From Candidatus Heimdallarchaeota archaeon B3_Heim (lineage in GTDB: Archaea; Asgardarchaeota; Heimdallarchaeia; Hodarchaeales; Hodarchaeaceae): a stretch of 7,898 bases of DNA. Under the pieces are notes generated by a model, which ran no database searches, was not told where the DNA came from, and saw nothing but the letters and a program-made list of their open reading frames with translations. The position numbers and the translations under genes are program-made. Below are positions 1-7,898 of this stretch, one piece after another (within the stretch, counting starts at the first letter, position 1; every line of letters begins with the position of its first letter). The DNA lies in NCBI GenBank assembly GCA_003144275.1, contig NJBF01000080.1, forward strand, positions 1-7,898, written 5' to 3'.

Positions 1-408
1 ACGGTACAGGGCCTTGTTTTGTCATTAAGTTTAGATTTTGACTTTCCCCTAACAGCAGAGATAGACATTCCTCGAACTTATATCGGAAAAACTGGAGATA
101 CGATGAGCTCCGATATTCCCAAATTAGAAGCTGTTTTAATACGCAGAGGAGATGAACTTCTTCCCTCCCATGAACCCATGCGTCCTGATGATAAAATTAT
201 TGTATATTACTACAGTAATTTCGATATGAAACGCACTAATAGAGTCGTAACGGAATTACCTTACAAAAAAAAGAAGAAAAAAGCAAAAAAAAGTAAAATA
301 GTGGATACACACGAAATTAGCGATCTTGAAGGGTCAGATGAAGAGAAAAGTCAATTTGAGGAAAGCAGTTTGAACCAAGCGAATACTGTAGAAAAGGAGG
401 ATTTATGA
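1..408 (+). CDS. 5'-truncated RCK/TrkA-like protein: TrkA_C (RCK-C) domain plus lysine-rich and acidic tail
   Basis: Frame 1 is open from base 1 (TVQGLVLSLS...), so the true start probably lies upstream of the window. EIDIPRTYIGKT...VLIRRGDELLP...MRPDDKIIVY fits the TrkA_C pattern (xVP...VGKT...AIxRGGxxIxP...LxxGDxLxV). The next gene is also RCK-like. Confidence 0.7.
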   Translation, partial: TVQGLVLSLSLDFDFPLTAEIDIPRTYIGKTGDTMSSDIPKLEAVLIRRGDELLPSHEPMRPDDKIIVYYYSNFDMKRTNRVVTELPYKKKKKKAKKSKIVDTHEISDLEGSDEEKSQFEESSLNQANTVEKEDL

Positions 409-1118
409 TGGGTTTTTTTAAGAAAAGAAGAGTCCGTAAGTTCGCTGAGAAAGCTGTGGAACAACAAAGTGATTTTTATGTTTTCGGTAGTAACAATTTT
501 ACAGAGGCCTTTATCGATCAATTATTCCAGATCGGTGCTGAAAGTAAAGTTTCTTTAATTTCTGATATCAAACTAAACTGGATAGAAGAAGTAAAATCGC
601 AGATAAATGTGCTATATGAAGAAAAAACGGAAGAATATGCAAAAAGAAATTTGTACGAAACTCTAGGTTTTCAAAATGCAAAAAAAGTCATTATTCTTCA
701 CGAAGATCCTGTAATAATTCAAAATATAATGTCTTTTGTCACAGGTAGCGATTTACAGGTCATTATATTATCCCAATTCGCTCCACCATTTGTTAAATAT
801 TTATCAGGTCAGAAACCTGGCCAGATACTCATTGTAAATAATATATTTCAAATAGTAAATGAGTTATATGCTAAAATGGACTTACCTCTAAGTAGACCTC
901 CAATCATATCTATCCCCGTTCCTCCAAAATTAATTAACTCCTCTCCAATTCATGTAAATATCCCCAAAGTACGCATTCTACGAATCTTGAGAGAGGAGTA
1001 TAAGAAAAAACTTCTACCAATAGAACTTCCACTCCAAGAAAAAGATCGGCTACTGTTATATTTGGAGGATTCTCAAGAATCTTTGAAAAATCTAGTGGAC
1101 TTTTTAACAAAAAATTGA
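405..1118 (+). CDS. Degenerate RCK/TrkA-like protein (Rossmann TrkA_N-like plus TrkA_C-like domain)
   Basis: FYVFGSNNFTEAFIDQL sits at the beta1-alpha1 position of the Rossmann fold; LYETLGFQNAKKVIILHED resembles the RCK motif LxxAGIxxAxxVIxxxxDD; the C-terminal ISIPVP...RILRILR...LQEKDRLLLYL is TrkA_C-like. ATGA overlap with the upstream stop (405-408) and GGAGG at 396-400; the ATG at 408 is an alternative start. Confidence 0.7.
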   Translation: MMGFFKKRRVRKFAEKAVEQQSDFYVFGSNNFTEAFIDQLFQIGAESKVSLISDIKLNWIEEVKSQINVLYEEKTEEYAKRNLYETLGFQNAKKVIILHEDPVIIQNIMSFVTGSDLQVIILSQFAPPFVKYLSGQKPGQILIVNNIFQIVNELYAKMDLPLSRPPIISIPVPPKLINSSPIHVNIPKVRILRILREEYKKKLLPIELPLQEKDRLLLYLEDSQESLKNLVDFLTKN

Positions 1119-1805: not shown

Positions 1806-4673
1806 TCAAACCATTCCTTTTCCAATTTGATCAAATATTTCTTCAAGAGATCCTCTGACTCTTGAAGAATACAAATCTGATGAGAAACGAAGAAGGTCCA
1901 AATAGAATTTGTTCTGTGCTAATAAGGAAAACCAACTCAGAGTAATTACAGTCTTTTTCAGGGTCCAATCCTTGGTTTCCCAAAAATGCTTCATAGTACT
2001 ATAATCACTTTTGAAACTTGGAACAACAAGTAAAATTCTATAAATGGCGTTATTCTCTGATTTTTCTGTTTCAACAACAATTCGTGTTCCATAAAGGGAT
2101 TTTAATGATTTAACTGCCCTTTCATTTGTAAGATAACCCAATTCAAGTGTTGGTACAGGGATATTATTTTGAATTACTATTTTAACTTCTGGATCGGATT
2201 TAAATACGTTTTTTCCGACAAGTCTCCCAGAAGAACTAAACACATTCGATAAGAGCTCATAAGCATGCGTTTCTAATACTTTAGCATAACTGCGAAAAAT
2301 ATCGGATGACGATGTAACTTCAGCAATCGATTCTTTCAAAAAAGGATAAGTCTTTTTGGTAACAAGAGCGTCTAGAACTTCTGATTGTAAATTATTAGGT
2401 AAAGATCTGTATATTGCATAAAAATAATATCGTCCTACGTTCTTAAATTCAAAGAATGGGTCTTTTTGGAAACTTTGTGTGATAGATTTTTGAATGCTTT
2501 TCATTGACGCAGAGGAGGCCGAAATTAATTTACTATCTTGATTAGCAAGATTTTTTCTGTTTATATTTAAGAAATTACAGGCTTGCATAAACGTTTTTGA
2601 GGCTTCTTTTGACACACCCTTTACTTGCTTTTCTACCAGAGATAATACATTGCTGTAACTTTTTGTTACGGTTGATTCCATTTTTTCAGTAATTTTTCGG
2701 AATTCTTTCTCAGTGTCTTTGATAAATCCTTGGTTCTTCAAAACTTTTTTAAGTTCCTGCTCTTTTAATTTTCCATTTACATATTCTTTTGAAGCATTTT
2801 TCGATTTCTTAAGATTTTCTTGCAGGTCTGTCATTAATTTATCAAATTCAGAAAGATTTTTCGTTATGTCTGAATTAACTTCGGATATGGGCTTTATAGT
2901 AAATTTTAACGAGTGTCGCTTAGCAATCTTGAGTTGGTACCCTTTAGAAATATCCTGCGGTTTTTGAGATAAATATCTTGGAATATTCTTGATCTCATCA
3001 TCGAATTCTGAGCGAAACGCTGTAATCTTCTTTTTAATAAGCTGTCCTTCTTCTGACAAGCTCTTCACATTTGCATCAATCACCGATTGCATCAGCTCAT
3101 CGATTGTAAGCTGATTACTCAAGATTTTTGCTGAAGTAATCTTGTCATCGGGGAATGCAAAAGAAAATGAGACTTTCGACTGGACGCTCTCTAAATAGGA
3201 ATATACTTTGAAAATTCCATGAGATTGGTGAAGGTCACGAGCTAAAAGATCAAGATTTTTATTCAATGTTTCAAGCAGATTATTTGGGTTCTCCTCACTG
3301 AATGCTAATTCTGAGATAACTGCATTTACACCGAAAGCAAGAGAGGAAAAAAGAGCACGATAAAAAGGAAGTACATCACTGGCTTTTTTTACTGTGAAAG
3401 AAAGCGGAGATAATTTGGTTCCGGTCAACTTGAATTTAGTCATCATTTTTTCGATAGTACTGAAATGAGAAGGAGGTATTTCATCTCTCATCTCGGGTAA
3501 TACATCTAAGATATCAATTTTTGTTTCATTACTAATTAATTTGAAAACGATTTGCATATATTTCCATGCAGAAGGAGTTAATCCTGCAGAAAATTCTTCA
3601 CAAAAATATCTTATGTAAGGTATTAGTAATTTAGCAAATATCTCATCTTCTATCATTTTTTCTGCAATTCGTGCTAGTGTGCCCCCAATATCATAATTTT
3701 CGTTTATTCGTGTCGTTAAAAGACTTACTTCGGATTTAAAGGAGGCAATTTCTGGATTTGCTAAAAAATAAAGGGGAAACTCTTTGAGATATTTATGAAA
3801 AATAGCATCTTCAATACGAGATCGAAGGTTTTTCTTAGTAACTTCATGTAAGGAAATATCTTCAAGAAACATTCGAAGATCATTCTCTTCGAATTCACGG
3901 ATCACTTCTTGCAATGCAGTATCAAATTTGAATGCACCTAGGTTTCTTTCAACATACTTCCTTACTTCTTTTAGAAGCGAACTCGATTTAGAATACATTA
4001 CAACTGAGTGAGGATATTCACTTGCCAGAAATTCCATTAATTCATGTGTGAATTTTTCTAGTATATCTTTTCTTTCGGCTTGGATCGTTGGAACAATTTC
4101 ATGAAACTTTCCTTTTAGATTTGAAATTTTAACCAAGGAAGCAGAGTATTCATAACCACTGATGGATTTTTCAAGCGTTTTATCAAGTGATTGACTGAAA
4201 AGATTATCATTATGAGGGATTGATACTTTTTTCCTGGCTTTTTTTATACTACTCAGAAAGAAATCTAAGACATCCGAGATTCCAAATGCAGTAAATTCTT
4301 TCTCTGCACGTTCAACAAGATCAGTTTTAAGGGTCTCCTCAGCAAAGAATGTCACCATTTGCTCATAAAACTCGACAAGAACAGGCGCTACAGTAATATG
4401 CTTACGAGAGATCAATAAAAACTGGCCAACAAGTTCAAAATCAGATCTTTTCACAAGAAATCTCCCAGTTTTATTGTTATGACTACCCCCAACAAAACGG
4501 CTTGTATCTCCACCAATTTCTCCACCCAACATCTGTTGTACAGCTGTTAAACCACCTGTATATACTTGTTCGTCCACAGATTTTAATCCTGGTTGTCCTA
4601 AAGACACCAGGCTTAATCCTGATAGAGAGGCGAGTGAAACCCATGCAACTGGTTGAAAATCTTGGTCTGTCAA
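1806..4673 (-). CDS. 955-aa uncharacterised protein: putative N-terminal longin-like domain and long predicted helical body
   Basis: Uninterrupted 2868-nt ORF. The TTG start has AAGGTG 8 nt upstream. The N-terminus WVSLASLSGLSLV...VDEQVYTGGLTAVQQMLGGEIGG resembles the longin pattern (hhhxxxSGxxL...DxxLxxGxLxAhxxxxxEh). The rest is K/E/L/S-rich with no transmembrane stretch or recognisable catalytic motif. The CDS is secure; the domain call is tentative. Confidence 0.6.
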   Translation of the reverse strand: MTDQDFQPVAWVSLASLSGLSLVSLGQPGLKSVDEQVYTGGLTAVQQMLGGEIGGDTSRFVGGSHNNKTGRFLVKRSDFELVGQFLLISRKHITVAPVLVEFYEQMVTFFAEETLKTDLVERAEKEFTAFGISDVLDFFLSSIKKARKKVSIPHNDNLFSQSLDKTLEKSISGYEYSASLVKISNLKGKFHEIVPTIQAERKDILEKFTHELMEFLASEYPHSVVMYSKSSSLLKEVRKYVERNLGAFKFDTALQEVIREFEENDLRMFLEDISLHEVTKKNLRSRIEDAIFHKYLKEFPLYFLANPEIASFKSEVSLLTTRINENYDIGGTLARIAEKMIEDEIFAKLLIPYIRYFCEEFSAGLTPSAWKYMQIVFKLISNETKIDILDVLPEMRDEIPPSHFSTIEKMMTKFKLTGTKLSPLSFTVKKASDVLPFYRALFSSLAFGVNAVISELAFSEENPNNLLETLNKNLDLLARDLHQSHGIFKVYSYLESVQSKVSFSFAFPDDKITSAKILSNQLTIDELMQSVIDANVKSLSEEGQLIKKKITAFRSEFDDEIKNIPRYLSQKPQDISKGYQLKIAKRHSLKFTIKPISEVNSDITKNLSEFDKLMTDLQENLKKSKNASKEYVNGKLKEQELKKVLKNQGFIKDTEKEFRKITEKMESTVTKSYSNVLSLVEKQVKGVSKEASKTFMQACNFLNINRKNLANQDSKLISASSASMKSIQKSITQSFQKDPFFEFKNVGRYYFYAIYRSLPNNLQSEVLDALVTKKTYPFLKESIAEVTSSSDIFRSYAKVLETHAYELLSNVFSSSGRLVGKNVFKSDPEVKIVIQNNIPVPTLELGYLTNERAVKSLKSLYGTRIVVETEKSENNAIYRILLVVPSFKSDYSTMKHFWETKDWTLKKTVITLSWFSLLAQNKFYLDLLRFSSDLYSSRVRGSLEEIFDQIGKGMV

Positions 4674-4843: not shown

Positions 4844-5245
4844 ATGTTTAGAAAGAAATTACGCGAAATGCTACAACTCATGGGCGTAATGGATATCGAT
4901 GACGAAATTCTTGATAATCTACAAAGACAGTTATTTAAATTTCTTGAATTCGATGATTCTCTTGCTGGTGGAATTACTTTTAAGACTGGAAGTATTATCA
5001 CCACCTTACAAATTCAGAATTATCAAGAAATAAAGGAAACCATATCAAAGAAGTATGAGAAGGGAGAAGCACTAGGGAAAATGAATCTACGTCTGACAAT
5101 GTCAAGTTTTTGTTTATACTTAACAGAGGAGAGAAAGTGCCAAATCACGGATGATAGCTGCCCATTTGAAGTTGGTACACGCTGGTGGGAGTGTGAAATT
5201 GTCCAAGCCTCTTGCTTACCAAATGATGAAGAGGAATGGAAATAA
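4844..5245 (+). CDS. 133-aa hypothetical protein: possible histone-fold-like N-terminus and C-terminal five-Cys metal-binding cluster
   Basis: ATG start with upstream GGTG; the ORF fills the space between flanking genes. Cys pattern C90-x8-C99-x6-C106-x10-C117-x6-C124. The histone-fold resemblance was judged by eye only. Confidence 0.65.
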   Translation: MFRKKLREMLQLMGVMDIDDEILDNLQRQLFKFLEFDDSLAGGITFKTGSIITTLQIQNYQEIKETISKKYEKGEALGKMNLRLTMSSFCLYLTEERKCQITDDSCPFEVGTRWWECEIVQASCLPNDEEEWK

Positions 5246-5251
5246 GAGGAT

Positions 5252-5782
5252 CTAATCTCTCTCGGTGGGACGAGGTAGATCATGTACAATTGCCTGTAAT
5301 AGCAAAGACATCCCCGAGTTATTTTGAGGGGACATAGAGTATATTGTTAAATTGTGTTCATTCACTAAATTATTCAAATTCTTGGGAGGTTTTTCTTTTT
5401 CCCCTTTTGATCGATTTCCAACAAGAAGGAATTTCATGGAGGGGGTTGCCTCTTTAATAGTCTCAAAAGCCTGATTTACATAGATGTGGGATTCCTTATC
5501 TGAAAAGTCAAAAACCAATACTACAACTGCTGCATTCTGCAAGAAGTTCTTTATTTGATAATCCAAGCTATTAGATATATCCCAGAATTGGAGATAGTAA
5601 TTGTGTTTCTGATACTCTAATTCTAAATTATAATAGTAAATTCCAAGAGTAGGTACATAATCTGTATCAACATTTGAAGCAACTAGTCTTCGTATAATTG
5701 AGGTTTTCCCAACTCCTTGTTTTCCAAGAAATACTATTTTATAATACGGATGAAATTCATTTACTTGTGTCGGGGAAGACAA
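5252..5782 (-). CDS. Rab/Ras-like small GTPase with degenerate G3, G4 and G5 motifs
   Basis: KIVFLGKQGVGKTS (G1), YVPTLG (G2), LQFWDISN (G3 position), VVVLVFD, LLVGNRSK (G4 position), YSMSPQ (G5 position). TTG start 16 nt after the stop of the upstream gene. No C-terminal Cys prenylation motif. Confidence 0.9.
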   Translation of the reverse strand: MSSPTQVNEFHPYYKIVFLGKQGVGKTSIIRRLVASNVDTDYVPTLGIYYYNLELEYQKHNYYLQFWDISNSLDYQIKNFLQNAAVVVLVFDFSDKESHIYVNQAFETIKEATPSMKFLLVGNRSKGEKEKPPKNLNNLVNEHNLTIYSMSPQNNSGMSLLLQAIVHDLPRPTERD

Positions 5783-5798
5783 AAAAACTCACACGCCT

Positions 5799-6776
5799 TC
5801 AGAGGATTTCCGATTTAAATAAGATTTGACGTTGATCTGATTTTTTCTCCTCAGTCCATAACTTGAAAGGAATAGTTCGTGTTTTTTCTCCCTCTCTAAT
5901 AACAATACCATGATATTTCTTTAAAATTTGCTTTGATACCCACGAAAATCCTTGAGCGACAATATAAATACATGAAATTCCCTTAAATTCTTCTAATGTT
6001 TGATTCAATATTGGGTTTACGATTTTACTTATATCGTCAGCATCGACAGTTTCTTGCATGCAAAAAATCCAAATCATCATGCCTTGATGATCATAAGCGA
6101 TTAGATCAAATGGACCGCTTTCTATTAATGCCCCAGATGGCTGAATAAAAACAATATCTCCAATATTTTCAGAGTAAACAGTGAATCTTAAGGCTAATCC
6201 TCCTTCGATAGAAGGATCGCGTCCAATTATTATTGCATATAGTATTTCAATGAATTTTGGTTGTAAGCTGGCAAGTGTGAGAAGAATTTCTTCTCGTTCT
6301 CCCGATAGGTTAGAAATAATTGTCTCGCTAATCCCGTACTCCCGGGCAAAATTGCTGATAACCTGTGGTGATAACCCTGAAATATGACGGATTTCATCAA
6401 TCAATGAGCGGTGATAAGTACTTACAGATTTAGTATCGTATAACATTGAAAGCGATTTAAGAGACGCTAAATCCTTTTTGGGAATAAATTTTTGTTTATA
6501 AGAGAGACGACTAGAGTGTGATTGATTCTTCAAGAAGAAACGAGCTTGAAGCATACTAATTTCTTCAAGAGATTTTGTCAGTAGAGGAGTATTGCAATCT
6601 ACACAAGAATAGGAAACGCTACTAGCGGTGGAGAAGTGTTGAATTACTCCTACATCACAGAAGAAAGCTTTCCTGCAGGTAGGGCAATAATTAGCTTCGA
6701 ATTGATCTGAAATATCACGACTTGGCCCCCCTTCAAAGACACATGGACGACAATCACTATCACAATGAATCTTCAT
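5799..6776 (-). CDS. 325-aa protein: N-terminal Cys8/His zinc-binding domain and C-terminal PD-(D/E)xK (Mrr-like) fold lacking catalytic residues
   Basis: C5, C9, C12, C31xxC34, C40, H47, C58xxC61. The C-terminal FDLIAYD...IWIFCM...VDADDISKI...IYIVAQGFSWVSKQIL follows the Mrr_cat layout. ATG start with AGGTG 9 nt upstream. Confidence 0.65.
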   Translation of the reverse strand: MKIHCDSDCRPCVFEGGPSRDISDQFEANYCPTCRKAFFCDVGVIQHFSTASSVSYSCVDCNTPLLTKSLEEISMLQARFFLKNQSHSSRLSYKQKFIPKKDLASLKSLSMLYDTKSVSTYHRSLIDEIRHISGLSPQVISNFAREYGISETIISNLSGEREEILLTLASLQPKFIEILYAIIIGRDPSIEGGLALRFTVYSENIGDIVFIQPSGALIESGPFDLIAYDHQGMMIWIFCMQETVDADDISKIVNPILNQTLEEFKGISCIYIVAQGFSWVSKQILKKYHGIVIREGEKTRTIPFKLWTEEKKSDQRQILFKSEIL

Positions 6777-7505: not shown

Positions 7506-7602
7506 ACAAGAAAAAAACATTCATTTTCGTCGTATTCGTCACTTTCACCGCTCTCTCTCTGTTTCAAGCTTATAAGAGGGAAAATACTAGAAAGAGGTGG
7601 GA

Positions 7603-7898
7603 ATGCGCACCAAGAAACACCCTCAACCGCAGTTAGCGATCCGAATGCAGCTGAAACCGCGGCCAATATTTACTGATTTGTACACCTGCGCGAAAAACCT
7701 CTATAATCGCGCCACCTATGAGGTTCGCCAAGAATTCTTCAGGGCAGGAAAATGGCTCCAGTATACGGCGCTATATCATCGGCTCAAGCACGAACCAGTC
7801 TATCTCGCATTAAAAACCATCTCGGATAGCTATTTACCTCAACAAGTCTTGCGACAGATAGAACAGGTCTGGCGGGGTTTTTTTAATGCCTTGAAAGC
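7603..7898 (+). CDS. tnpB: TnpB (IS200/IS605/IS607 OrfB) RNA-guided endonuclease family, N-terminal part, 3'-truncated by the window edge
   Basis: Not in the ORF track. My translation from ATG 7603: MRTKKHPQPQLAIRMQLKPRPIFTDLYTCAKNLYNRATYEVRQEFFRAGKWLQYTALYHRLKHEPVYLALKTISDSYLPQQVLRQIEQVWRGFFNALK. KNLYN..Y..RQ.FF, LY..LK....Y..L and QQVL......W..FF are typical of the TnpB N-terminus. GAGGTG at 7594-7599; alternative in-frame starts are GTG 7597 and ATG 7645. Confidence 0.88.
   Translation, partial: MRTKKHPQPQLAIRMQLKPRPIFTDLYTCAKNLYNRATYEVRQEFFRAGKWLQYTALYHRLKHEPVYLALKTISDSYLPQQVLRQIEQVWRGFFNALK

Follow-up and report, generated by a model that had tools for sequence, protein, structure and literature searches.

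The window (the whole 7,898-nt stretch of DNA analyzed) carries the gene of a degenerate Ras/Rab-like protein of 176 aa, which we interpret, at a probability of about one-half, as a genus-specific, RasL-derived pseudo-GTPase that would serve as a non-cycling adaptor and whose nucleotide binding would be at most weak and unselective for the base. The residues that contact phosphate and Mg (Lys26, Thr27, Thr45, and Asp68) are retained; the base-pocket equivalents of Ras Phe28, Asp119, and Ala146 are gone, together with the Gly and Gln of switch II. The family gene is single-copy, syntenic, and present in 22/22 genomes of the genus.

Motif status of the GTPase-like gene

The gene and its nucleotide-binding positions are as follows.

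5252..5782, minus strand: gene for the degenerate Ras/Rab-like (probably RasL-derived) protein, 176 aa; TTG start, Pfam Ras match, AF2 model
5702..5725, minus strand: G1 P-loop GKQGVGKT, residues 20-27; canonical, with Lys26 in 36/36 family rows
5669..5671, minus strand: Val38, at the base-stacking position of Ras Phe28 (from the alignment and the clade residue table)
5648..5650, minus strand: G2 Thr45, the Mg ligand of switch I; retained
5570..5584, minus strand: G3 WDISN; Asp68 retained, Asn71 in place of Gly and Ser72 in place of the catalytic Gln, with 2 residues deleted directly after
5405..5419, minus strand: G4 GNRSK; Lys126 where canonical G domains have the guanine-reading Asp
5324..5332, minus strand: G5 SPQ; Pro152 at the position of Ras Ala146

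These readings bear out the initial annotation, which had reported an intact G1 at exactly these nucleotides, an intact G2 Thr, WDISN without a switch II Gly or catalytic Gln, NRSK with the Asp lost, SPQ instead of SAK, and a short switch II, where two residues are missing directly past G3 in the alignment to Ypt6/Rab6. Alignment with Ypt6 and Rab6, which are the top sequence matches in the PDB, set the motif register, and Lys126 truly occupies the G4 Asp position because orthologs show no indel between G4 and helix 4. Beyond the motifs named earlier, the base-stacking residue of the Phe28 type is also gone (Val38). Neither chance nor sequencing error accounts for the changes, since eight other orthologs, at ~80 to 95% identity, have the same ones and most paralogs are canonical. 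The protein contains no Cys anywhere and hence no C-terminal cysteine prenylation motif. Separately, synonymous divergence is low over the first 13 codons (5744 to 5782, minus strand; pS of 0.165 versus about 0.6 elsewhere, in a small sample), which suggests nucleotide-level constraint at the start region of the gene.

Placement in the Ras superfamily

Both fold and profile assign the 176-aa protein to the G domains of the Ras superfamily: its AF2 model (pLDDT of 80.7) has a complete G-domain fold, and it matches Pfam Ras at 2e-19 and 70 bits (cut-off of 21.6). The top fold matches are Rabs and Ras proteins, namely, Rab9B in Foldseek and Rab28 (Z of 18.4 over 158 residues, rmsd of 3.2) and Rab6 (Z of 18.3) in VIA. 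In a tree limited to family members and genome paralogs, the family forms one clade (support of 100), from which the window's group is split off by a branch with a support of 95. The family stem is long (1.21) and lies by short Rab-like, not Arf-like, paralogs, a position flagged for long-branch attraction; no sister paralog was resolved among the G domains of the genome.

The protein is probably a Ras superfamily domain derived from the Asgard RasL group, to which the "Rab-like" small GTPases of Asgard archaea have been assigned (10.1101/2024.02.28.582541; for Thor-Rab, PMC10933270). Like Asgard RasL proteins, it is a single G domain that has no prenylation tail and is one among dozens of paralogs. 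Unlike them, the family (36 rows) has the G4 Asp in 1/36 and the catalytic Gln in none, whereas a control census of 138 paralogous G domains from three genomes gave 130/138 for the G4 Asp, 133/138 for the Gly of DxxG, and 111/138 for the G5 Ala.

The protein is not a Rab, and its Rab likeness is one of superfamily, not of orthology. Its best sequence match is Ypt6 (4e-15), whose P-loop is almost identical; unlike eukaryotic Rabs, it lacks the G3 Gly and Gln, the G4 Asp, the G5 Ala, and C-terminal cysteines, and its switch II is 2 residues shorter. Set against the RabF consensus, it partially resembles Ypt6/Rab6 at F1, F2, F4, and F5, and the F3 region is deleted and replaced. Among the motifs of canonical switching GTPases, the G1 GxxxxGK[ST] and the G2 Thr are present, and the G3 DxxG (with Gln), the G4 [NT]KxD, and the G5 SA[KL] are absent.

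Stepwise motif loss within the family

Throughout the family, the phosphate-binding side of the pocket is preserved, with Lys26, Thr/Ser27, and Asp68 in 36/36 rows and Thr/Ser45 in all except the P0041-type case described below. The base-reading side is altered: the G4 Asp position holds Lys in 17 rows, Glu in 17, and Asp in 1. The window's genome encodes ~55 small G domains, of which the window protein is the only one to lack both the G3 Gly and the G4 Asp. At the Ras Phe28 position, Phe occurs in 74/98 paralogs versus 1/15 members of the window's clade. Within the family, the domain is found in three states, as follows.

(i) The larger group (n = 18 in the clade residue table) retains the G3 Gly in 17/18 members, has Glu in place of the G4 Asp in 16/18, and has Ala, Val, or Ile in G5.

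(ii) The window's clade (n = 15) has the Gly in 0/15, the 2-residue deletion, Lys126 in 15/15, and never Ala in G5, although 9/15 members are close kin, which inflates the apparent conservation. Asn123 is kept in 11/15 and Pro152 is found in 8/15; G4 and G5 positions other than Lys126 vary inside the clade. As to whether DISN and NRSK are conserved in orthologs, which the initial annotation had made a point to check, the answer is divided: close orthologs share them, but DISN, NRSK, and SPQ are subclade features, most other members of the family having DVSGN and NKxE.

(iii) P0041 (L152:990-1508), a member of the window's group, occupies the same locus as an open 172-aa frame and is itself 35% identical, between neighbors that are 70 to 78% identical. 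It lacks the P-loop, G2, G4, and G5 residues, with a P-loop Gly changed to Asp; its branch is ~five times longer than those of its neighbors, and it is known from a single metagenomic scaffold.

Since paralogs have canonical motifs, the Gly/Glu state probably came first, by parsimony. The likely course of events from these sequences is a stepwise loss, from Gly plus NKxE to NxxK without Gly and then to loss of the P-loop.

That P0041 is syntenic and open despite its broken P-loop, and that three base-pocket residues and the G3 Gly have been lost together, would suit a class i pseudo-GTPase that binds no nucleotide in the cell and whose P-loop is kept for folding or as a partner interface. We regard such a protein as unlikely, given the invariance of Lys26, Thr/Ser27, and Asp68 (and of Thr/Ser45 outside the P0041-type case) and given that the P-loop is degraded or occluded in the class i domains described so far (PMC5593906, PMC12490416).

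The same genome (G000) has other degenerate small G domains, at C79:11079-11606, C9:3916-4485, C79:4014-4568, C79:4770-5375, and C11:30884-31594, whose origin is separate from that of the window family. Those at C79:11079 and C9:3916 have damaged P-loops and group with a degenerate paralog of genome G009 (support of 97); in that at C79:4770, the G3 Gly and Gln alone are missing.

Distribution, selection, and evolutionary rate

The window is from the genome of an Asgard archaeon of the order Hodarchaeales, and its nearest loci are in Heimdallarchaeota/Hodarchaeota MAGs. There is one match in 20 of the 22 genus genomes, and the other two carry copies cut by assembly gaps; pseudogenes in these two genomes, which were first scored as missing the gene, were ruled out, both copies being interrupted by runs of N. 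Outside the genus, the gene was not found in the other families searched: in two genomes of the same order and one of the same class (80 to 93% complete), the best matches are canonical paralogs, although long-branch orthologs may have been overlooked in genomes of this completeness. A search of 1.84 billion proteins added nothing beyond more members of the family and Rab-like proteins of the ordinary kind. Among the genomes searched, the family is limited to one genus.

Across five close orthologs, the dN/dS of the gene is 0.07 to 0.11 (rising to 0.29 in the closest pair, at a dS of just 0.08), compared with 0.04 to 0.065 and 0.014 to 0.04 for two neighbor genes; by part, it is 0.018 for residues 14 to 73 and about 0.115 for the G4-G5 part. 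No stop codon occurs in any whole copy examined. Judged by these values, the gene is maintained by purifying selection and is not a pseudogene. It nevertheless evolves rapidly: against G009, its identity of 31% is the lowest among 25 orthologous G-domain pairs (53% for the next); against G020, its divergence puts it in the top three of 32 pairs; and on a fixed tree it runs ~2 to 2.5 times faster than its two neighbors on most branches and not on one stem only, a pace close to that of an ordinary enzyme gene nearby. The gene is thus kept but no longer held to the strict conservation that a GTP switch imposes.

As the fastest-evolving G domain of its genome, at ~2 to 2.5 times the neighbors' rate, it could also be taken for a decaying, functionless paralog, and the initial annotation had allowed for a decaying copy whose close orthologs are canonical. 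Tested in this way, the close orthologs prove to share the motif changes under purifying selection, whole copies are without stop codons, all 22 genus genomes have the gene, dN/dS stays at 0.07 to 0.11, and identity to distant orthologs (37 to 44%) equals that of ordinary neighbors such as the HemK-like methyltransferase. Decay is refuted as far as sequence can refute it, and we give it hardly any chance.

Constraint is uneven along the protein. Identity inside the window's clade is 0.80 in the N lobe and 0.44 in the C lobe; against G020, the N-terminal lobe, at 0.93 (median of 0.95), is as conserved as in a normal GTPase, while the C-terminal lobe ranks 30th of 32. The difference between lobes is 0.17 here, versus a median of 0.05 and a maximum of 0.16 in canonical paralogs. 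Because these paralogs have the same gradient in weaker form, N-lobe bias is supportive only and by itself no proof of a partner surface.

Neighboring genes and synteny

Genes near the GTPase-like gene are the following.

5799..6776, minus strand: gene for a 325-aa protein, upstream of the GTPase-like gene with a 16-nt gap; Cys-rich N-terminus and PD-(D/E)xK/Mrr-like C-terminal fold
4844..5245, plus strand: 133-aa conserved protein of no known family, convergent on the GTPase-like gene
1806..4673, minus strand: gene for a 955-aa protein; longin/roadblock-like N-terminus (first 135 residues, TM of about 0.7)

The 325-aa gene is probably co-transcribed with the GTPase-like gene, and its zinc/Mrr-like product is a candidate partner. 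This protein has an Mrr/NucS-like fold with no evident second catalytic motif, and a fold search gave only weak matches of the NucS/EndoMS type (E of 5e-3). In the 20 genomes with a single match, the family gene always comes after this same gene. The 325-aa protein belongs to a three-paralog Hodarchaeales family with seven invariant cysteines (L035-L052, L146-L151): one of the other paralogs adjoins a near-invariant canonical Rab-like GTPase (G000 C70:9884-10450) in 10/10 loci, the other adjoins a longer, 315-aa GTPase in 2/9 loci, and homologs in two same-order genomes have no GTPase adjacent to them. The pattern is no more than a hint of a recurring link between the 325-aa family and small GTPases, since related loci do not count as separate cases and these genomes abound in GTPase genes. 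The GTPase-like protein and the canonical GTPase next to the 325-aa paralog are also not sisters in the tree, which weakens the link and leaves their co-duplication unsupported. Complex prediction for the GTPase-like and 325-aa proteins gave a score of 0.01, which is uninformative either way.

The 955-aa protein, in which a long helical region follows residue 135, is 40 to 46% identical across the genus and is a possible partner. The 133-aa protein (dN/dS of 0.014 to 0.04) has four C-terminal cysteines. Synteny was considered and rejected as proof of a four-gene module: the same order spans ~12 genes in five distant genus members, in a conserved block that includes gyrase subunits, the HemK-like methyltransferase, and PCC/RidA genes, and, with the whole block conserved, housekeeping genes included, adjacency lends a module little support. 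In L133-L137, the block runs on into a metallophosphoesterase gene and genes that resemble gyrase B and A (recognized by eye); in G000, this part is on contig C23. In MK-D1, small GTPase genes are generally not in operons with longin or roadblock genes (PMC10933270). A promoter/terminator scan of the sequence gave results at chance level.

At the ends of the window, the frames at 1 to 408 and 405 to 1118 (plus strand) are adjacent mutual paralogs (31% identity over 218 aa; L001/L002) with no Pfam match, the first being cut by the contig end. An open frame at 7597 to 7898 (plus strand), at the other contig end, resembles the start of a TnpB/IS200-605 gene and looks like a recent insertion, since in L001/L002 a RidA-like gene comes directly after PCC.

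Proposed nucleotide binding and mechanism

The G3 Gly is the gamma-phosphate sensor of G domains, and cellular ATP usually exceeds GTP. A non-cycling adaptor with the residues described above would bind nucleotide weakly, exchange it fast, and hardly discriminate between bases, and such binding would leave it mostly ATP-loaded or empty in the cell. Intrinsic hydrolysis would be absent, switch II would not flip, and the switch I/interswitch face would always be open to a partner (candidates being the zinc/Mrr-like protein encoded upstream and the protein with the longin-like domain) without the need of a GEF or GAP. In Ras, Asp119, Lys117, and Ala146 confer guanine affinity and selectivity (PMC11594714), and changes at Phe28, Lys117, Asp119, and Ala146 speed nucleotide release (PMC8916776); in YchF, a non-canonical G4 loosens base selectivity (PMC9748339). 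Of the alternatives put forward in the initial annotation, ATP or another nucleotide on the one hand and a locked, non-cycling scaffold on the other, the scaffold fits best; "locked" in the sense of a GTP-on state is unlikely because, in Ras, base-pocket changes accelerate nucleotide release (PMC8916776). The ATP switch is the weaker branch, with variable G4/G5 positions and a syntenic member without a P-loop.

The non-cycling adaptor reading leaves the invariant Lys126 unaccounted for, and this fixed Lys is the strongest argument for a change of specificity. The Ras/Rab fold would then have been re-specialized from GTP to ATP as an ATP-sensing switch or ATPase acting with the zinc/Mrr-like or longin-like neighbor, with Lys126 hydrogen bonded to adenine N1 and a GAP providing a catalytic residue in trans. 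The passage from Asp through Glu to Lys at the base-reading position, the occurrence of Lys in 15/15 members amid varying neighbors and once more in the other group, and an N lobe fixed anew after the change all speak for it. Residues 123 to 125 and 151 to 153, however, vary freely in the clade, unlike a refitted pocket; the charge swap between positions 126 and 130 of the two groups (Glu/Lys versus Lys/Glu) fits a loop salt bridge equally well; and, without the G3 Gly, the usual gamma-phosphate sensor is gone. Although G4-linked ATP use has a precedent in YchF/OLA1 (PMC9748339), we hold an ATP switch to be rather improbable because most G4 and G5 positions vary.

A further reading keeps GTP as the ligand. 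An intact G1, G2 Thr, and G3 Asp, Asn123 in 11/15, and a larger group whose DxxG, NKxE, and often SAK are compatible with GTP binding could describe an atypical GTP-dependent G protein like IFT22, of low affinity, stabilized by a partner, and cycling slowly or with a GAP. Guanine-binding proteins without NKxD are common (43% of a PDB set spanning many folds; PMC11594714), and IFT22, without the catalytic Gln, sets a precedent in that it nonetheless copurifies with GTP (PMC10505919). To judge from the Ras contacts (PMC11594714), however, the Lys of the window's clade faces the N1/N2 edge of guanine and Pro152 has no backbone NH to offer guanine as the G5 Ala does, and there is no conserved substitute acidic residue near G4 or G5; we consider this reading quite doubtful.

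Comparison with pseudoGTPases and atypical G domains

With three of five motifs altered, an intact fold, and maintenance by selection, the window protein falls under the sequence definition of a pseudoGTPase (PMC5593906). Its class (i, ii, or iii) is not assignable from sequence. Examples of the classes are p190RhoGAP pG1/pG2, CENP-M, fungal LIC, and AAGAB (class i), Rnd (class ii), and RGK (class iii) (PMC5593906, PMC12490416), relative to all of which the window family has an independent, archaeal origin. Class i members have degraded P-loops, whereas that of the window protein is intact; Rnd still binds guanine nucleotide, whereas the base pocket of the window protein is lost.

IFT22/RabL5 and the AGAP/centaurin-gamma domain are likewise of the Ras fold with a non-canonical base pocket, in unrelated lineages; IFT22 is not known to have a G4 motif, and centaurin gamma-1 reportedly has NTPase activity. 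AGAP1-3 are without NKxD (PMC13222923), and IFT22, mostly without the catalytic Gln, joins its complex with no GTP added (PMC10505919). YchF/OLA1, whose G4 is NxxE and whose specificity is relaxed or for ATP (PMC9748339), recalls the NKxE of the larger group; it is, in contrast, a multidomain enzyme of the Obg family that keeps DxxG, and the window protein has Lys126 rather than Glu, no G3 Gly, and a lone Ras-like domain of 176 aa.

Biological implications

PseudoGTPases have been described mainly in eukaryotes. No paper containing both "Asgard" and "pseudoGTPase" came up in a full-text search of a collection with few subscription journals, nor was any found on this degenerate family. In a published Asgard survey, fast-evolving sequences of this kind were set aside as possible pseudogenes and given no annotation (10.1101/2024.02.28.582541); the window family is at least one such sequence kept by selection, and its genomes contain further degenerate G domains with origins of their own. 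As such, not every Asgard "Rab-like" gene can be counted as a working switch. The ATP-switch reading, if true, would be a natural change from GTP to ATP in the Asgard order proposed to be closest to eukaryotes. With its extant states at a single locus (Gly plus NKxE, NxxK but no Gly, and a lost P-loop), the family is suited to testing how Glu or Lys at Ras position 119 affects the choice of base and may serve as a model for the passage from switch to adaptor.
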